From a virus (taxonomy: Duplodnaviria; Heunggongvirae; Uroviricota; Caudoviricetes), in the IMG/VR virus record IMGVR_UViG_2703718854_000001: a stretch of DNA of 35,878 nucleotides; one strand, written 5' to 3'. Both the position numbers and the translations under genes were made by a program. A model generated the notes under the pieces. It ran no database searches and was not told where the DNA came from. It saw only the letters and a program-made list of their open reading frames with translations. Below, in pieces: positions 3,909 through 34,500 of this stretch; position 1 is the first letter of the stretch, and every line of letters begins with the position of its first letter.

Positions 3909-4180
3909 GTATTCGTATTGAAATTGGCGAACGTTATGTCGTTACCAGTGACAGCTTTCAGTTTATTCTCCACGAGAAAAAGAGAGCGGAAAGCGGTAAA
4001 AACGCCGGTCAGGAATGGCTGGCGGTGGTTGGTTATTACCCGAAATTAAGCCAGCTCGTTTCCGGCCTGATGCATCACGATATTCTGACCGGAAGCGCAA
4101 AATCTTTTGCCGATTTAAACGTGCAGGTTGAGCAACTCAGCAGGCGTTGTTCAGAGGCTTTTGGCTCATATGGACGTTAA
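3905..4180 (+). CDS. Small early protein at the P2 orf83 position
   Basis: Position immediately upstream of A; overlapping start/stop. Confidence 0.55.
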   Translation: MSIRIEIGERYVVTSDSFQFILHEKKRAESGKNAGQEWLAVVGYYPKLSQLVSGLMHHDILTGSAKSFADLNVQVEQLSRRCSEAFGSYGR

Positions 4181-6458
4181 AGCCTCCGGGCGTTTTGTCC
4201 CTCCGTCAGCATTTGCCGCAGACACCGGTAAGACGTTTACCGGTGCTTATGCATGGAACGCGCCACGCGAGGCTGTCGGGCGCGAAAGACCCCTTACACG
4301 TGACGAGATGCGTCAGGTGCAAGGTGTTTTATCCACGATAAATCGCCTGCCTTATTTTTTGCGCTCGCTGTTTACTTCACGCTATGACTACATCCGGCGC
4401 AATAAAAGCCCGGTGCACGGGTTTTATTTCCTCACATCCACTTTTCAGCGTCGTTTATGGCCGCGTATTGAGCGTGTGAATCAGCGCCATGAAATGAACA
4501 CCGACGCGTCGTTGCTGTTTTTGGCAGAGCGTGACCACTATGCACGCCTGCCGGGAATGAATGACAAGGAGCTGAAAAAGTTTGCCGCCCGTATCTCATC
4601 GCAGCTTTTCATGATGTATGAGGAACTCTGCGATGCCTGGGTGGATGCGCATGGCGAAAAAGAATCGCTGTTTACGGATGAGGCGCAGGCTCACCTGTAT
4701 GGTCATGTTGCTGGCGCTGCACGTGCTTTCAATATTTCCCCTCTCTACTGGAAAAAATACCGTAAAGGGCAGATGACCACGAGGCAGGCATATTCTGCCA
4801 TTGCCCGTCTGTTTAACGATGAGTGGTGGACTCATCAGCTTAAAGGCCAGCGTATGCGTTGGCATGAGGCGTTACTGATTGCTGTCGGGGAGGTAAATAA
4901 AGACCGTTCACCTTATGCCAGTAAACATGCTATTCGTGATGTGCGTGCGCGCCGCCAGGCAAATCTGGAATTTCTTAAATCGTGTGACCTTGAAAACAGG
5001 GAAACCGGCGAACGCATCGACCTTATCAGTAAGGTGATGGGCAGTATTTCTAATCCAGAAATTCGCCGGATGGAGCTGATGAACACCATCGCCGGAATTG
5101 AGCGTTACGCCGCCGCAGAGGGTGATGTGGGGATGTTTATCACGCTGACCGCGCCGTCAAAGTATCACCCGACACGTCAGGTCGGAAAAGGCGAAAGTAA
5201 AACCGTCCAGCTTAATCACGGCTGGAACCATGAGGCATTTAATCCAAAGGATGCGCAGCGTTATCTCTGCCGTATCTGGAGCCTGATGCGCACGGCATTC
5301 AAGGATAATGATTTACAGGCCTACGGTTTGCGTGTCGTTGAGCCACACCACGACGGAACGCCGCACTGGCATATGATGCTTTTTTGTAATCCACGCCAGC
5401 GTAACCAGATTATTGAAATCATGCGTCGCTATGCGCTCAAAGAGGATGGCGACGAAAGAGGAGCCGCGCGAAACCGTTTTCAGGCAAAACACCTTAACCG
5501 GGGCGGTGCTGCGGGGTATATCGCGAAATACATCTCAAAAAACATCGATGGCTATGCACTGGATGGTCAGCTCGATAACGATACCGGCAGACCGCTGAAA
5601 GACACTGCTGCGGCTGTTACCGCATGGGCGTCAACGTGGCGCATCCCACAATTTAAAACGGTTGGTCTGCCGACAATGGGGGCTTACCGTGAACTACGCA
5701 AATTGCCTCGCGGCGTCAGCATTGCTGATGAGTTTGACGAGCGCGTCGAGGCTGCACGCGCCGCCGCAGACAGTGGTGATTTTGCGTTATATATCAGCGC
5801 GCAGGGTGGGGCAAATGTCCCGCGCGATTGTCAGACTGTCAGGGTCGCCCGTAGTCCGTCGGATGAAGTTAACGAGTACGAGGAAGAAGTCGAGAGAGTG
5901 GTCGGCATTTACGCGCCGCATCTCGGCGCGCGTCATATTCATATCACCAGAACGACGGACTGGCGCATTGTGCCGAAAGTTCCGGTCGTTGAGCCTTTGA
6001 CTTTAAAAAGCGGCATCGCCGCGCCTCGGAGTCCTGTCAATAACTGTGGAAAGCTCACCGGCGGTAATACTTCGTTACCGGTTCCCACGCCTTCTGAGCA
6101 CGCCGCAGCAGTGCTTAATCTGGTTGATGACGGTGTTATCGAATGGAATGACCCGGAGGTCGTGAGGACGCTCAGGGGTGCATTAAAACACGGACTGAGA
6201 AGACCAAACCGTCAGCAAAGAAACGGAAGCCCGTTAAAACCACATGAAATTGCGCCATCGGCCAGACTGACCCGGTCGGAACGAATGCAAATCACCCGTA
6301 TCCGCGTTGACCTTGCTCAGAACGGTATCAGGCCGCAGCGATGGGAGCTTGAGGCGCTGGCGCGTGGGGCAACCGTAAATTATGGCGGAAAAAAATTCAC
6401 GTATCTGGTTGCTAATGAGTGGTTCGGGTTTCAAGATGACGTGTCATTTTTCATATAA
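4170..6458 (+). CDS. A: Replication initiation protein A (rolling-circle nickase), about 762 aa
   Basis: Size and position match P2 A (761 aa); HWH and YIAKYISK motifs are typical of rolling-circle initiators; start taken at the in-frame ATG at 4170. Confidence 0.88.
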   Translation: MDVKASGRFVPPSAFAADTGKTFTGAYAWNAPREAVGRERPLTRDEMRQVQGVLSTINRLPYFLRSLFTSRYDYIRRNKSPVHGFYFLTSTFQRRLWPRIERVNQRHEMNTDASLLFLAERDHYARLPGMNDKELKKFAARISSQLFMMYEELCDAWVDAHGEKESLFTDEAQAHLYGHVAGAARAFNISPLYWKKYRKGQMTTRQAYSAIARLFNDEWWTHQLKGQRMRWHEALLIAVGEVNKDRSPYASKHAIRDVRARRQANLEFLKSCDLENRETGERIDLISKVMGSISNPEIRRMELMNTIAGIERYAAAEGDVGMFITLTAPSKYHPTRQVGKGESKTVQLNHGWNHEAFNPKDAQRYLCRIWSLMRTAFKDNDLQAYGLRVVEPHHDGTPHWHMMLFCNPRQRNQIIEIMRRYALKEDGDERGAARNRFQAKHLNRGGAAGYIAKYISKNIDGYALDGQLDNDTGRPLKDTAAAVTAWASTWRIPQFKTVGLPTMGAYRELRKLPRGVSIADEFDERVEAARAAADSGDFALYISAQGGANVPRDCQTVRVARSPSDEVNEYEEEVERVVGIYAPHLGARHIHITRTTDWRIVPKVPVVEPLTLKSGIAAPRSPVNNCGKLTGGNTSLPVPTPSEHAAAVLNLVDDGVIEWNDPEVVRTLRGALKHGLRRPNRQQRNGSPLKPHEIAPSARLTRSERMQITRIRVDLAQNGIRPQRWELEALARGATVNYGGKKFTYLVANEWFGFQDDVSFFI

Positions 6459-6535
6459 AACATTTCAAAATTCAATGTAATGAAAGCATATCGTATATCG
6501 CTTTAATATGTGTTATTCTTCTTGGTTGTTAATGT

Positions 6536-6563
6536 TTGATTTTATATGAAAAAATATTATATA
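6536..6563 (+). promoter_or_regulatory. Candidate sigma70 promoter for the RT locus (TTGATT, 16-nt spacer, TATATA)
   Basis: Sequence match only, in a very AT-rich segment where chance matches are common. Confidence 0.25.
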
Positions 6564-6619
6564 TAGAAAGATCAAATACAACGGTTTACTTGTTATGATG
6601 CAATTATTGGTTAGTTAGT

Positions 6620-6870
6620 GAGATACATCGCCATCAATTGGGTATTTTTTACCCGTGGAAAGTTAACACTTTCTACCGTTTACCCCGCGCAACGCCCCTG
6701 CCAGCGACAAGAGTCACAGGACCAGGTGGTATGGCGTATGGGAATTCGAACCCTTTGGGCGACAAAGGGTTCGTGGAGCAGGGAGCTAGTGCTGTTCAAT
6801 CTCATCCTTATGAGGGCGAACCATAGTGTTGGAGCAGACATACCGTTTGCACACTATGGGCATAAGGAGC
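6620..6870 (+). ncRNA. Candidate structured non-coding RNA or leader upstream of the RT operon (possible retron msr-msd)
   Basis: Perfect 11-bp hairpin at 6747-6773; 9-bp stem 6821-6829/6851-6859 nested in an 8-bp stem 6805-6812/6861-6868 that pairs with the downstream Shine-Dalgarno; the overlapping ORFs have no ribosome-binding site and look non-coding. Confidence 0.3.
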
Positions 6871-6875
6871 AAATC

Positions 6876-7031
6876 ATGAAGAATGATAAATTAACCAACG
6901 AACAGCAGGCGCAGAACAAGTCAAACCTGAAAAAGAGGGCTGGTTATGCTTGGGAATTATTCAAATGGGGTATTAGACTGTTTGATTTAGTCACTCGAGC
7001 ACTGGACTACTTAGAAGGGGGTGGTGAGTAA
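6876..7031 (+). CDS. Small protein (51 aa), first ORF of the RT operon
   Basis: ATG at 6876 with AAGGAG 6 nt upstream; hydrophilic N-terminus and amphipathic C-terminus; no recognisable domain. Confidence 0.35.
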   Translation: MKNDKLTNEQQAQNKSNLKKRAGYAWELFKWGIRLFDLVTRALDYLEGGGE

Positions 7032-7067
7032 TGCGTCCTCCCTAGTTTCAATAGCATGGAGTTGCCT

Positions 7068-7376
7068 ATGTTACATAAAGCCCTTCGTTTAATAAGGCAA
7101 TACCATAAAGAATCAATAGTTGAGTTATCTTCATCTTTAGGTATTCCAAAAGACAAAATAGTATCGCTTGAAAGCGGAGTTTGGTCACCGTCGATTGAAG
7201 TCTTAGAGCGTTACGCCTCCCATTTCGACATACCAGTATCCTCTTTAGTATTCTTTTCGGAATCATTAGGCACGCAAGGCCGTTTGTCTAAGCGATTGCG
7301 TTTAAATTTAGCCGGTAAAGTTCTGGATGTTCTGGAGTGGGTAAGTAATAAAAATGAAAAAACGGAAAAAGCTTAA
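7068..7376 (+). CDS. XRE-family HTH protein (about 102 aa) immediately upstream of, and overlapping, the RT gene
   Basis: Cro/C1-like HTH (SIVELSSSLGIPKDKIVSLESG); GGAG 6 nt upstream of the ATG at 7068 (alternative ATG at 7056); 3' end overlaps the RT start by 23 nt. Confidence 0.65.
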   Translation: MLHKALRLIRQYHKESIVELSSSLGIPKDKIVSLESGVWSPSIEVLERYASHFDIPVSSLVFFSESLGTQGRLSKRLRLNLAGKVLDVLEWVSNKNEKTEKA

Positions 7377-8304
7377 GGTTAATACTAAAAATAAATCTTA
7401 TGACATAATGGATTCGCCATTTTACAAACTCAAAAGTAAAAGAAAACTGGCGAATTTGCTTTGTGTTAGTCTTGAAGAATTATACTCTTTGAGAAAAGAT
7501 GAAGGAAACTATTCCGTTTTTGAGCAACTTTCTAAAAAAGGAAAAGCACGAAAAATACAAAAGCCTTTAGAAAAACTAGAACTTGTACATACACGAATTG
7601 CAAGTTTGTTATCACGGATTGCTTTGCCAGAATATCTGCACTCGGGGAAGAAGAAGTGCTCTAATGTGACGAATGCTAAAGCTCATCTTAATAATGAAAA
7701 GATGATGACAACAGATATTAAAGCTTTTTTTCCATCAACTACAAGAGGGATGATATTTTCTTTTTTCTTTTCGATGATGAAAATGTCATCTGATGTTGCT
7801 GATGTTTTGTCCCACATATGTACTTGTCATGACCGATTACCAACAGGTAGTCGCATCAGTATGCCGTTGGCATATTTTGCAAATTCAAGAATGTTTGGTG
7901 AAATATATCAACTTTGCCAAAAGTTACGAGTTAACATGACTGTTTATGTTGATGATCTCACTTTTTCAGGTGGTAACGTAAATCGATTGTTTTGCGCTGT
8001 AATTCGTAAGATCGTTAATAAGCATGGACATGTTATACACCCAACGAAAACAAAATTATATGCCAGAGATAAGCCTAAGTTGGTAACTGGAGTTATTGTA
8101 TTCGGTAATGCTTTAAAAGTTAGGAATGAGCAGCATTTTTTGATGGCTAGGGAAATAGATTATTGGAAAATAATTAAAGACGCCGAAAATGCGAGAGAAA
8201 CAATCATTGCCAAAAAGCTCTTTGGCCGTTTGCATTCAATGGGAGTGATTGAGCAACGTTACAAATCGAAGGTGCTTACTTTAAAGGCTAATACTGCAAA
8301 TTAA
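7354..8304 (+). CDS. Reverse transcriptase, retron-type (316 aa)
   Basis: YVDD active-site motif; NAKAH (NAxxH), DIKAFFPS, LPTGSxxSxxLA and a VTG motif (KLVTGVIVF) align block by block with the retron Ec86 RT recalled from memory; 316 aa is retron-sized; AT-rich cargo. Confidence 0.8.
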   Translation: MKKRKKLKVNTKNKSYDIMDSPFYKLKSKRKLANLLCVSLEELYSLRKDEGNYSVFEQLSKKGKARKIQKPLEKLELVHTRIASLLSRIALPEYLHSGKKKCSNVTNAKAHLNNEKMMTTDIKAFFPSTTRGMIFSFFFSMMKMSSDVADVLSHICTCHDRLPTGSRISMPLAYFANSRMFGEIYQLCQKLRVNMTVYVDDLTFSGGNVNRLFCAVIRKIVNKHGHVIHPTKTKLYARDKPKLVTGVIVFGNALKVRNEQHFLMAREIDYWKIIKDAENARETIIAKKLFGRLHSMGVIEQRYKSKVLTLKANTAN

Positions 8305-8427
8305 CATATTGAATGTATTGCATAAAAGCATCAATAATTAAAATGACTTGGCGTTAGTAACGCCGCAAGTGCAGGAATTTACTTTCGATGCAGGCGGCGT
8401 TGATTAGAAACCTCAGAAAGTAGTTAG

Positions 8428-8865
8428 CTATGAAGCTGACGTCACAAAATTAACGCCAAGAGTCAACAGGTTTGTCACTGCTCCAGCAATTACACCTGGA
8501 GTTCCGTCTTTTACTGCACTGATAATTTTATCACCCATCGTTTCATTACCGCCAAGTGCTTCGGGTTTTTTGTTGAGCACCGCGAGTGCTTTCTCGGTCA
8601 GGCGCACATCATGAAAACCGGTCTGATGGTCTGTTCCGTACAGAATATAGCCGTTTTCGCTTAGGAAAGTGAATGTGCCATCAACCACACTACGCAACTG
8701 ATTCAGTGCTTTCATTTCTGGTGAGTTAAGTTGGTCAAAGTAGTCATCAGGTAACGCGGCGTTAAATTTTTTGTAGGTGATGACTTGTGGTACAGGAAAG
8801 TTATCCCATAGCACCGCAAAGATTTCTGCCGTCTGTTGGTTGAATAATTCGAGATTTTTGGACAT
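8428..8865 (-). CDS. Hypothetical protein (145 aa) with a predicted C-terminal transmembrane anchor
   Basis: Good Shine-Dalgarno (GAAAGGGAA); C-terminal hydrophobic stretch GVIAGAVTNLLTLGVNFV; convergent with the RT gene. Confidence 0.55.
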   Translation of the reverse strand: MSKNLELFNQQTAEIFAVLWDNFPVPQVITYKKFNAALPDDYFDQLNSPEMKALNQLRSVVDGTFTFLSENGYILYGTDHQTGFHDVRLTEKALAVLNKKPEALGGNETMGDKIISAVKDGTPGVIAGAVTNLLTLGVNFVTSAS

Positions 8866-9196
8866 GCATAGTTCCCTTTCATCAATTAAAGACCCTTATG
8901 CCGACTGGGCAAAGAGGCTAACTGTAATGGCCTCAAATAACGACCTGAGCTCTCGCGAGGTGGATAGTTACACTGAAAAAATGGTTGAACAAGCCAGTAA
9001 AGATGAGCTTATGGTCGTTATAAAATACCTGTTAAATCACATCAGAATGAATAAATAAAATGATCTATATCAAGATGTTATCTCACATTTATGAAAGTCC
9101 GTGGACAACGATTTTTCTGCTAATTGTTGTCAGTACGTGCCTCAACAGTGTGATTGGTGCATTGCGCGGCCAGTGACAACTATAAAAATTGATCAG

Positions 9197-9224
9197 AACC
9201 GGCATCATGAATGCCGGTTTTTTT
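9197..9224 (+). terminator. Rho-independent terminator (9-bp GC-rich stem, T-run)
   Basis: aaccggcat-catga-atgccggtt followed by tttttt. Confidence 0.5.
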
Positions 9225-9382
9225 GTGCTTTTTCTGTGATATCCCCGTTTTTATCTGTGCATGCAATATGTGCATGGTTTTGCATGTGCCGGAGTTACAT
9301 GTTCTGGCCGTGCGTCCGCCAAGACTGGCGTGGCTCAAAAGCGGTATTGCAACTGCATTAAAACCGCCCCATGAAGCGGGCG

Positions 9383-9401
9383 GGCGAGGCGGGGAAAGCA
9401 C
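9383..9401. other. cos site: P2-type 19-nt cohesive-end sequence GGCGAGGCGGGGAAAGCAC
   Basis: Exact match to the P2 cohesive-end sequence as I recall it; lies between the old/tin-type region and Q, as in P2. Confidence 0.55.
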
Positions 9402-9545
9402 TGCGCGCAGCCCGTCAAGAATAAAAAACTCTCTTGCAGGTAGAAAACATTCTGTTAACATTTGTCTGGATGAAGTTTAAGTTAGAAATTTATGTTAATG
9501 AACTGATTGATACTTATGTTTTGTCAATAATTTAGGAATGTTAAG

Positions 9546-10682
9546 ATGACAAGCTATGTTACATGGGCAAATAAAGGTGGAATAGGTAAATCAACATTAT
9601 CTTTCCAATTGGCGTTAAAATACGCGAGATTAAACACGAATAAAAAAGTAATCATAATAGATATGAGCCCTCAGTGTGATGTCTCTAGAATGTTATTGGG
9701 GGGAGGGCATTTTAACGGTGAGCAAAAGATCTTGGATAGAATGACCTCTAATCCAAGGTTGACAATTTACCGGTATCTTGAGGCCTGTGTTAATGATGTT
9801 CCTTCTGGGAGGGGATGGCCTGATTCATTATCATACTTAATTGAACCTAATTCTTTTCGAGACGAAAACGCAGAAAAATTGCCTGATAATATTAGTATGG
9901 TCTGTGGAGATTTCGACTTAGAGAGGGTTACTCATAGTTTAGATAATTTGCCACAACCTCAACCAAGAGGCGGGCGTGTTCCGTCGGGTGCTCATTACTC
10001 AGCATATTTATTGCCACGCACTTTTCTACGGAAAATGGTGGAGGACTTTGAGCGCGAATACAGGGATGTGACAATTTTTATTGATACGGATCCATATTAT
10101 TCGGTAGTAACAACACATCTGGGGCTTCTGGCTGCAGACAGGTTGATTTCGGCATACTCTCCTTCATCTCAAGCAAGCCAGTATGCAGTATATCGTAGCT
10201 TAGAGTTTCTATACGATCCTAATTATGGACTGGTGCAAGAGGTTAATACACAGAGAGCAATATATGGTACCCCTTGGTTTGATAGTTTAAATAATATAAT
10301 TACAACACCGAATATATCTGTTGCAAATCTTTATATGGTAGTAAGTAACATGAATACGCCTCAGGCTGGAAGAGGACAACCTCCATACAGCCAACCCCAA
10401 AAACTACATAGACAATCGCAACAAGAAGTTATATCTAGAATTAATGACACATTAAGTAGTTTGGGGATCGCGCATGATTATGTTCATGACTATTTATGGG
10501 ATCTCAAGAGATTAGGTTTGATTTGTGATTATAATGGTTTTGATTTAGCAACAATTCAATTAGGGGAAAATTATGCGGAACCAAGTGATGATGGTAATTA
10601 TTATGTAAATACTACAGGTGGAACACCGATCCAATTATCATCCTATAATGCTAGGATCGAAACTGTTACATCAAAACTATAA
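9546..10682 (+). CDS. ParA/MinD-family P-loop ATPase with an unrecognised C-terminal extension of about 130 aa (378 aa)
   Basis: Deviant Walker A KGGIGKST; A' (IIIDMSPQ) and Walker B-like (IFIDTDP) motifs; AT-rich; no parB-like partner nearby. Confidence 0.7.
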   Translation: MTSYVTWANKGGIGKSTLSFQLALKYARLNTNKKVIIIDMSPQCDVSRMLLGGGHFNGEQKILDRMTSNPRLTIYRYLEACVNDVPSGRGWPDSLSYLIEPNSFRDENAEKLPDNISMVCGDFDLERVTHSLDNLPQPQPRGGRVPSGAHYSAYLLPRTFLRKMVEDFEREYRDVTIFIDTDPYYSVVTTHLGLLAADRLISAYSPSSQASQYAVYRSLEFLYDPNYGLVQEVNTQRAIYGTPWFDSLNNIITTPNISVANLYMVVSNMNTPQAGRGQPPYSQPQKLHRQSQQEVISRINDTLSSLGIAHDYVHDYLWDLKRLGLICDYNGFDLATIQLGENYAEPSDDGNYYVNTTGGTPIQLSSYNARIETVTSKL

Positions 10683-34344: not shown

Positions 34345-34372
34345 TAAAAAATAAGCCCGTGTAAGGGAGATT
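34345..34372. repeat. attR core, 28-bp direct repeat identical to attL; it is the 3' terminator end of cyaR
   Basis: Exact repeat of 491-518. Confidence 0.8.
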
Positions 34373-34432
34373 ACACAGGCTAAGGAGGTGGTTCCTGGTA
34401 CAGCTAGCATTTTATGGGTTATGTTTTTCAGC
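34346..34432 (-). ncRNA. cyaR: CyaR (RyeE) Hfq-dependent small RNA
   Basis: The reverse complement of 34346-34432 reads GCTGAAAAACATAACCCATAAAATGCTAGCTGTACCAGGAACCACCTCCTTAGCCTGTGTAATCTCCCTTACACGGGCTTATTTTTT, which matches the E. coli CyaR sequence as I recall it, including the terminator. Confidence 0.8.
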
Positions 34433-34500
34433 GAAACGGATGATAACCTTAATAAATGCAGCTGTATGTGATCGGTTTCTAAGAATTTTCCATCCGGGAA
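34433..34500 (-). promoter_or_regulatory. cyaR promoter region with a candidate CRP half-site
   Basis: On the minus strand, a TATCAT -10-like element lies just upstream of the CyaR 5' end, with TCACA-containing CRP-like sequence further upstream; CyaR is known to be CRP-activated. Confidence 0.3.

Follow-up and report, generated by a model that had tools for sequence, protein, structure and literature searches.

The stretch of DNA analysed here (the window; 35,878 nucleotides (nt), IMG/VR virus record IMGVR_UViG_2703718854_000001, Caudoviricetes) has the appearance of a nearly complete P2-like prophage of Escherichia coli, and the subject of this report is the structured segment at 6620-6870, upstream of a reverse transcriptase (RT) operon. 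After the replication gene gpA (4128-6458; Pfam Phage_GPA, E = 3e-123) come an AT-rich spacer, the structured region, an open reading frame (ORF) for a small protein (SP) of 51 amino acids (aa), a helix-turn-helix (HTH) gene and the RT gene, the whole occupying the cargo region that separates gpA from the late-gene block further downstream. gpA is the sole prophage gene confirmed by family search; a P2-type integrase near 598-1611 and the late-gene block are putative, from ORF layout alone.

The RT matches the PADLOC model RT_VI over positions 1-278 of 279, with the runner-up model, RT_III-A, reaching only 3.9e-45, and has the motifs YVDD, NAKAH and VTG. Its start is overlapped by the HTH gene, and the SP matches phrog_15287 (E = 8e-34). 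Judged by the classification of Mestre et al. 2020 and the PADLOC models, the three gene-content features of a Type VI retron are all present, namely the RT clade, the adjoining HTH gene and the order SP-HTH-RT. In addition, the SP's ribosome-binding site (RBS) and its start codon both lie within predicted stem-loops, as expected of a Type VI hybrid RNA (hyRNA), a transcript that joins the retron non-coding RNA (ncRNA) to the SP coding sequence. On its sequence, the locus is a Type VI retron, arranged SP-HTH-RT, and the segment at 6620-6870 is almost certainly the non-coding 5' part of its hyRNA, acting both as RT template and as a repressor of SP translation. As a whole, the region is very probably best explained as the hyRNA of such a retron, carried as cargo of a P2-like prophage and working as a switch like that of Retron-Vpa2 from Vibrio parahaemolyticus.

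Structure and covariation of the hybrid RNA

Folding of 6600-6890 gave a minimum free energy (MFE) of -104.1 kcal/mol, as against -79.7 +/- 4.9 for 200 dinucleotide shuffles (z = -4.98; 0/200 as good), and for the full RNA, 6604-7075, the value was -161.9 kcal/mol (z = -4.54). This bears out the initial annotation, made by reading the sequence, which had called the segment highly structured; the hairpins it listed are also all correctly placed. A perfect 11-bp inverted repeat joins 6747-6757 (CGAACCCTTTG) to 6763-6773 (CAAAGGGTTCG), and within the compound hairpin of 6805-6868 both an 8-bp stem (6805-6812, TCCTTATG, with 6861-6868, CATAAGGA) and a 9-bp stem (6821-6829, CCATAGTGT, with 6851-6859, ACACTATGG) are 100% complementary. 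The AAGGAG Shine-Dalgarno (SD) sequence at 6864-6869 lies 6 nt 5' of the ATG at 6876, and five of its six bases are therefore within the outer stem, which does cover the SD as had been proposed. Short direct repeats, also reported earlier, are indeed present (TACCGTTT at 6674 and 6841, TGGAGCAG at 6774 and 6830, CGAACC at 6747 and 6817), but conservation across the family fails for GGAGCAG (6775 and 6832) and TACCGTTT, which are limited to the closest E. coli relatives and were rejected as functional repeats. Only a GGGCGA core is kept family-wide, at 6757-6762 and 6814-6819, the latter copy overlapping CGAACC. Similarly, it is true that no clean a1/a2 terminal repeats occur inside 6620-6870, but an a1/a2-like pair does exist (6774-6785 with 7038-7050), and was missed because one of its arms falls outside that 250-bp box.

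Related loci were gathered from genomes and viral contigs by RT alignment, and an iterated nucleotide profile (nhmmer) found full-length counterparts of ~440-490 nt in 60 loci, giving 29 non-redundant sequences. These homologues, which come from prophage contigs, a single Nitrosomonas and many Gammaproteobacteria, span the Enterobacterales, Xenorhabdus, Vibrio, Shewanella, Colwellia, Marinobacter, Alcanivorax, Nitrosomonas, Hafnia, Yersinia, Legionellaceae and Acinetobacter. In all 29 there is a small syntenic ORF with its own SD. Within E. coli the locus occurs in 100 of 5,426 complete genomes, O157:H7 strains among them, as several sequence variants whose leaders are 70-100% identical, and it is also found in Peduovirus P2_2H1 and in Klebsiella P2-like phages.

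Several individual loci deserve mention. Strains EF7-18-58 and DSM 101139 match the window at 99.9% identity over the retron and at 100% over the segment of leader and SP. A retron variant of ~70% leader identity in E. coli C5 (L006, NZ_CP010122.1 2217496-2220987) does not lie in the P2 gpA context but has DUF4236 and YkgJ-family genes on its flanks, and the module therefore moves between contexts. A near-identical SP and leader occur in the Enterobacteriaceae UBA5654 (L010). Xenorhabdus hominickii carries a Type VI retron twice in one genome (L026 and L027; NZ_NJAI01000001 and NZ_NJAI01000003), the two hyRNAs having identical profile-match coordinates and scores.

The predicted structure is reflected in the variation between homologues. 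On a sequence-only MAFFT alignment of 19 homologues, the structure of the window was 77.8% paired, compared with 42-48% in slid controls, and 212 cells had changed on both sides, compared with 64-97. For the arm containing the RBS, a covariance-model alignment of 29 matches was 96.8% paired versus ~40% in slid controls, with compensatory changes in 29 of the 31 pairs; these include all eight pairs of the helix formed by the SD and its upstream complement, the anti-SD, which is 95-100% paired. This alignment was fitted to the structure and is therefore biased in its favour; when homologues were folded singly and independently, pairing of the SD with the upstream anti-SD was seen in 16/19. When RNAalifold was applied to a plain MAFFT alignment of this arm, misalignment of the interior left the outer closing stem as the only one recovered, a problem that the covariance model solved. 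This arm-closing stem, found in the sequence-only alignment of 29 homologues, has compensatory changes in 8/8 pairs and is 99-100% paired. Further inside the riboregulator are the 9-bp stem already described and a second stem, 6834-6839/6845-6850. The small hairpin over the start codon is moderately conserved (65-74% paired in 19 homologues). A search with retron ncRNA covariance models had been suggested as a check; Rfam gave no family match at the gathering threshold in the whole window, with only a noise match (E = 2.4) in 6450-7150, which says only that Type VI hyRNA is absent from Rfam.

Upstream of the riboregulator lie the elements of a reverse-transcription template. Of the two msr-like hairpins, one has 100% and the other 89% of its cells paired in 19 homologues, with four compensatory pairs each. 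At the position of 6684-6742 every homologue has a single long hairpin of 50-84 nt, marked by 18-nt indels and little sequence conservation, and at that of 6747-6773 all have a perfect hairpin of 6-13 bp whose stem sequence changes. The two GGGCGA copies, direct repeat 1 (DR1, in the hairpin loop) and direct repeat 2 (DR2, in the internal loop of the riboregulator), change together across lineages. The long-range helix between 6774-6785 and 7038-7050, which flanks the SP gene, is 82% paired, with 7/12 pairs compensatory (19 homologues). At the 5' end, a TGtTATGAT element is kept in E. coli and Klebsiella relatives and agrees with the covarying leader helix that begins at 6607; a consensus promoter scan did not call it, because its -35 is weak, and it is a promoter by inference only. 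The coordinates of all these features are collected in Table 1.

Table 1. Features of the Type VI retron locus and its hybrid RNA, in window coordinates.
Feature	Position	Strand	Remarks
Candidate extended -10 promoter element, TGtTATGAT	6591-6599	+	Read from the sequence; transcription would begin near 6605
Leader helix W, 5' strand, UUGGUUAGUU	6607-6616	+	Pairs with 6889-6898, within the coding sequence of SP
Leader helix X, 5' strand, GUGAGAU	6618-6624	+	Pairs with 6799-6805
5' element Y, UCGCC	6628-6632	+	Complementary to both direct repeats (GGCGA); identical to DR1 as copied into msDNA
Two msr-like hairpins	6640-6644/6650-6654 and 6655-6663/6668-6676	+	MFE fold
Long imperfect hairpin, candidate main msd stem and reverse-transcription template	6684-6742	+	Position in homologues and Vpa2 alignment
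Perfect 11-bp hairpin	6747-6773	+	DR1 (GGGCGA, 6757-6762) in and beside the loop
Long-range inverted repeat, 5' arm (a2-like)	6774-6785	+	Pairs with 7038-7050; full-RNA MFE
Arm-closing stem, 5' strand, UGCUGUUC	6790-6797	+	Pairs with 6900-6907
Leader helix X, 3' strand, AUCUCAU	6799-6805	+	Directly 5' of the anti-SD
Riboregulator	6805-6869	+	Anti-SD 6805-6812; SD strand 6861-6868; DR2 (GGGCGA, 6814-6819) in the internal loop
Small hairpin including the SP start codon (AUCAU/AUGAU)	6873-6887 (6873-6877/6883-6887)	+	MFE
SP, 51-aa small protein, predicted toxic effector	6876-7031	+	AAGGAG SD; mRNA is the third arm of the hybrid RNA
Leader helix W, 3' strand, AAUUAACCAA	6889-6898	+	SP codons 5-8
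Arm-closing stem, 3' strand, GAACAGCA	6900-6907	+	SP codons 9-11
Third arm of the hybrid RNA	Remainder of the SP coding sequence	+	Full-RNA MFE fold
Long-range inverted repeat, 3' arm (a1-like)	7038-7050	+	Follows the SP stop codon directly
HTH protein of the retron	7068-7376	+	PADLOC HTH_VI, E = 7.7e-31; start 7068 per PGAP
Retron reverse transcriptase	7354-8304	+	PADLOC RT_VI, E = 3.9e-105; Pfam RVT_1

The 5' leader makes two further contacts, helices W and X. Helix W is kept as a duplex of 8-12 bp in 27/28 homologues, in ~14 sequence versions, and the energy of each leader with its own target is -9.8 kcal/mol, compared with -4.7 +/- 0.5 kcal/mol for permuted partners (0/5000). Helix X occurs as four matched haplotypes (GAGAU/AUCUC, GGGAU/AUCCC, GAGAG/CUCUC and GGGAG/CUCCC), its 5-bp core never broken, with an own-duplex energy of -7.5 kcal/mol versus -4.7 kcal/mol for cross pairs (permutation 0/2000). 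Both helices cross the arm-closing stem and the inverted repeat, and the node must therefore be pseudoknotted or the structures must alternate; a nested fold that enforces W and X lies ~7 kcal/mol above the MFE, with the SD helix retained. SP codons 5-11 (6889-6907) supply the 3' strands of two strongly covarying helices, W and the arm-closing stem, and the amino acids at these codons vary by lineage (EQQA, FWQA, YWLA, DQQ) together with the upstream RNA strands; RNA pairing has clearly shaped the coding sequence here.

A third leader element, the pentamer Y, changes in step with the repeats to which it is complementary. It does so in four or more independent sequence versions, among them UCGUC/GACGA in Retron-Vpa2, UCACC/GGUGA in Alcanivorax, Legionellaceae and Pseudohongiella, UCGCU/AGCGA in Nitrosomonas and UCUCAC/GUGAGA in Pseudoalteromonas and Catenovulum; 3/4 core pairs are compensatory and 0/500 shuffles were as good, on columns extracted by hand. 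Multicopy single-stranded DNA (msDNA) copied from DR1 would have the same sequence as Y, and would therefore mimic it. One conceivable, though doubtful, consequence is a switch with three partners, in which Y would rest on DR1 or beside helix X, and pairing of Y, or of the mimicking msDNA, with DR2 would be the ON state. The Y-DR2 state could be ON because this short helix, judged by nesting or by simple sterics, does not fit together with helix X and the anti-SD/SD helix: it would make an H-type pseudoknot with X, turning the anti-SD into a loop. That W, X and the arm-closing stem form a pseudoknotted node, two strands of which are SP codons 5-11, so that the N-terminal codons of the predicted toxin would be under selection as RNA structure, is a similarly tentative suggestion.

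Relationship to Retron-Vpa2 and other systems

Retron-Vpa2 of V. parahaemolyticus produces a hybrid RNA of ~470 nt that holds both msr-msd and the coding sequence of a toxic SP (Zhang et al., bioRxiv 10.1101/2025.10.22.683967). The RBS and AUG of its SP lie within stem-loops, the hyRNA is enriched in RNA-seq, and deletion of the non-coding part is toxic (Zhang et al.). Its msDNA is undetectable at rest, builds up on phage triggers and is required for SP translation, being sufficient in trans only with its 5' stem-loop; the mapped product comprises 63 nt over the long stem-loop and 23 nt to the right of it, 86 nt in all (Zhang et al.). A 7-nt direct repeat has one copy in the msd loop and one in the riboregulator loop, and the RNA is described as 'three arms from a central node', the arms linked by inverted repeats and the 3' end annealing to the first arm (Zhang et al.).

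The anatomy found here matches this three-arm wording. Two loci in the collection, L091 and L092, were identified as Retron-Vpa2 by comparing their SP sequence with the fragments in Table S3 of Garcia-Rodriguez et al. (bioRxiv 10.64898/2026.04.27.721009), allowing for an apparent 2-residue lapse in the extracted table. The profile from the window region matches the Vpa2 locus over 477 nt (L092 752-1228; E = 5e-39, later 3e-57), and the RBS-arm covariance model matches it with 48.5 bits (E = 1e-8). The RNA of ~6607-7082 is thus homologous over its whole length to the Vpa2 hyRNA, and the correspondence goes helix by helix. Both loci have the operon order hyRNA (ncRNA and SP), HTH, RT, and in both the RNA comprises two msr-like hairpins, a long msd hairpin, a perfect hairpin with the repeat in its loop, an inverted repeat flanking the SP, an arm-closing stem, the anti-SD/SD helix, a repeat copy in the riboregulator loop and a start-codon hairpin. 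The RTs are 54% and the HTH proteins 48% identical. They differ in host and vehicle, here a P2-like prophage of E. coli; in the repeat, which is GGACGAA of 7 nt in Vpa2 (L092 886-892 and 945-951) and GGGCGA of 6 nt here; and in the hairpin loop, 7 nt as against 5 nt. The strong pairing of leader and 3' tail seen in the single-sequence fold of Vpa2 is conserved neither here nor across the family, and such a terminal stem was rejected (own -9.1 versus permuted -9.85 kcal/mol, p = 0.95).

This alignment allows the template to be placed. The long hairpin at 6684-6742 aligns with the long stem of Vpa2 (L092 821-871), the carrier of the 63-nt msDNA signal of Zhang et al., and the perfect hairpin at 6747-6773 aligns with L092 876-902, whose loop holds the 7-nt repeat. 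The inverted-repeat helix has its equivalent in 903-914/1184-1197. By analogy, the template is predicted at ~6680-6773, comprising the long variable hairpin and the perfect hairpin and equivalent to Vpa2 817-902. The 86-nt msDNA fits L092 817-902, and by homology the perfect hairpin would therefore be the template of the essential msDNA 5' stem-loop; the inverted-repeat arm at 6774 should adjoin the point where reverse transcription begins. The earlier suggestion that the segment is either a retron msr-msd or a leader that hides the RBS is supported on both counts at once.

V. parahaemolyticus itself harbours two Type VI retron lineages, L089 on the one hand and L091/L092 on the other (RT clusters P0053 and P0075; SPs of 47 and 55 aa). 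Compared with the SP of Vpa2, that of the P0053 type (…NQQAQ…WFEGGE) is nearer to the E. coli SP.

Two further Type VI retrons offer points of comparison. Retron-Sen3, an SP-HTH-RT system of the Enterobacterales, makes its single-stranded DNA (ssDNA) constitutively and is controlled post-translationally through SP and HTH (Garcia-Rodriguez et al.). It and its group, cl2075, resemble the present locus in gene order, in a structured ncRNA within ~280 nt of the SP start, in an SP RBS buried in a stem, in a long-range IR1-IR2 pair flanking the SP and in an SP coding sequence under RNA-structure selection. They differ in belonging to another RT/SP sublineage, in the constitutive ssDNA and in the post-translational toxin-antitoxin control by SP and HTH; members of cl2075 have an SP of ~79 aa with an amphipathic C-terminal helix, whereas the SP here has 51 aa and the RT groups with Vpa2-like RTs. 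Retron-Eco12 is a Type VI retron of E. coli and is said to be related to Vpa2; it gives defence against lambda vir, and its msDNA was not detected at rest (Zhang et al.). It shares species and retron type with the present locus, and may be this locus itself or one of the other E. coli variants (70-94% leader identity).

Beyond Type VI, toehold-type switches and mRNAs activated by small RNAs similarly enclose the SD and AUG in hairpins and leave a short loop, here DR2, free for a complementary strand, but the proposed trans-activator here is a DNA reverse-transcribed from the same RNA, and the complementarity is 6-7 nt. In canonical retrons such as Retron-Eco1 (Ec86), msr hairpins are joined to a long msd template hairpin, with an inverted repeat abutting the template end. 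A structured RNA beside a retron RT, msr-like hairpins, a candidate msd template and an inverted repeat at the predicted template end are all found here. Unlike the canonical form, however, the RNA runs on to include the mRNA of the effector, the template-side repeat has its partner 3' of the effector gene and not at the 5' end, and msDNA is, in the Vpa2 model, an activator and not an antitoxin.

A proposed switch and its alternatives

From the Vpa2 and Sen3 experiments, the SP is predicted to be a toxin. The locus probably follows the Vpa2 model, with trigger-dependent msDNA derepressing the SP through DR1 and DR2, a preference based on its lineage, its conserved repeats and the behaviour of Retron-Eco12. 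The structure, the covariation and the full-length hyRNA homology are observations made here; msDNA, triggers, toxicity and derepression are carried over from the experiments on Vpa2. One transcript, from ~6605 to at least 7050-7080, would contain the msr-like hairpins and msd template, the riboregulator and the SP toxin mRNA. The anti-SD of the riboregulator (6805-6868) would pair with the SD of the SP and a small hairpin would cover the AUG, while the 5' leader (6607-6624) would clamp both flanks of this SD/AUG domain. In a resting cell the SP would probably be untranslated and msDNA scarce, the latter, it is proposed, because the RT is held back by the HTH protein and the DNA is degraded by host nucleases. 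Recombination or anti-RecBCD functions of a phage would then let msDNA build up, and its 5' stem-loop, carrying the DR1 complement TCGCCC, would hybridise to DR2 in the internal loop of the riboregulator. The freed SD would allow SP to be made, and growth of the infected cell would stop.

Some observations weigh against this account. In the window's own ensemble the SD is only ~50% paired on average. DR1 and DR2 share only 6 nt, set against a helix of 7-8 bp to be opened, for which neither Zhang et al. nor nearest-neighbour modelling gives an explanation. Similarity between the SP and the Vpa2 SP is not significant (BLASTP E = 0.73); only synteny, size, layout and composition match. A priming (branching) G was sought in the sequence, and no candidate could be assigned: G6630 varies, being A in three lineages; G6640 is invariant, but is the first pair of a hairpin; and the first Gs after the a1-like arm belong to the SD of the HTH gene. 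Finally, Retron-Sen3 makes ssDNA constitutively and controls its SP post-translationally (Garcia-Rodriguez et al.), and the mechanism therefore varies within Type VI.

That precedent provides the most substantial alternative for the mechanism, in which ssDNA and SP would both be made constitutively, the HTH antitoxin would neutralise the SP, inhibition of RecBCD would fire the system and the SD hairpin would only tune expression. Sen3 shows that an SP-HTH-RT Type VI retron can work in this manner with an ncRNA that buries the SP RBS and an IR1-IR2 pair that flanks the SP (Garcia-Rodriguez et al.), and in the window's ensemble the SD is only about half paired. The locus belongs, however, to the Vpa2-related lineage and not to cl2075, as judged by the RT and HTH identities and the full-length hyRNA homology. 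The DR1/DR2 pair central to the msDNA model is conserved and present, Retron-Eco12 msDNA is not detected at rest, and by eye the SP does not resemble the segments of the Sen3, Yersinia or Xenorhabdus SPs that the published table gives. Sen3-like control is accordingly considered unlikely here. Far less probable is a leader or attenuator that regulates translation of the SP-HTH-RT operon purely in cis, in which the segment would not be reverse-transcribed at all. Sequestration of the SD and AUG would suffice for a riboregulator, the Rfam retron families have no match, and 6620-6870 holds no canonical terminal a1/a2 pair; but a hypervariable long hairpin of variable length between conserved elements is the signature of an msd, RT-dependent DNA has been mapped to the part of Vpa2 with which the segment aligns, the predicted end of the template is adjoined by an a1/a2-like repeat and the neighbouring RT is a retron RT.

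That the region instead encodes a protein, through ORF 6618-7031 (137 aa) or ORF 6638-6826 (62 aa), can practically be dismissed. Both frames are open in the window, the record of phage Peduovirus P2_2H1 (LR595870.1, L007 1372-1764) annotates a coding sequence (CDS) of 393 nt across the equivalent RNA into the SP, and the profile phrog_5826 has 97 positions, of which the SP matches only 47-97. Neither ORF has a Pfam match, however, and 6618-7031 is the SP frame left open upstream, which in 18/29 homologues meets an in-frame stop at most 16 codons from the SP ATG. Variation in the region tracks base-pairing and not codons, and PGAP calls the 51-aa SP, and only that, in every E. coli relative. 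The 393-nt CDS and the length of phrog_5826 are thus probably a spurious upstream extension of the SP frame, and the initial judgement that these ORFs are more likely RNA than protein was justified. ORFs 6618-7031, 6638-6826 and the minus-strand 6680-6841 were all rejected as genes. An in-frame ATG at 6810 gives a 73-aa version in the E. coli lineages.

The initial annotation had also named 8340-8460 as a place to which the ncRNA might map instead. This site was rejected: it lies between convergent genes, has a terminator-like hairpin, and is not part of the retron, because the downstream neighbour, the gene 3' of the RT, differs between related loci. The surrounding 8300-8470 folds at -50.1 kcal/mol (z = -4.63) and contains a perfect 10-bp inverted repeat, 8347-8356 (CTTGGCGTTA) and 8451-8460 (TAACGCCAAG), with arms 94 nt apart. 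The far arm is inside the minus-strand gene 8428-8865, and the terminator-like hairpin for that gene is at 8364-8350.

The cargo 3' of the RT (window 8428-10682) varies among otherwise alike prophages (loci L001-L008), and looks like a variable-cargo region. Here it consists of a 145-aa protein (phrog_2266, function unknown) and a 378-aa ParA/AAA_31-like ATPase, whereas strain AR_0067 and phage P2_2H1 have an FRG-domain protein, and ECE228 and ECA64 another hypothetical protein. Near the other end of the window, adjoining the prophage, is the small RNA gene cyaR (CyaR/RyeE; 34349-34434, minus strand; Rfam, 100.7 bits).

Significance

The element belongs to a kind first described in 2025-2026, and the finding is correct but not new; set against the texts of the published papers, as distinct from their figures, the leader contacts and the three-way covariation might be the only parts that add to them. 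The Vpa2 model inverts the usual logic of retrons, in that msDNA, rather than keeping a toxin off, switches it on by freeing the mRNA from a riboregulator of its own making. An equivalent device in E. coli itself, carried as cargo of a P2-like prophage, would offer a model in the native host, one that bears on the priming site, on how a DNA:RNA contact of 6-7 nt may open the SD helix and on the role of the conserved leader contacts. For annotation, it means that the ~270 nt 5' of such RT operons should be read as ncRNA, and not as an ORF as in at least one phage record.

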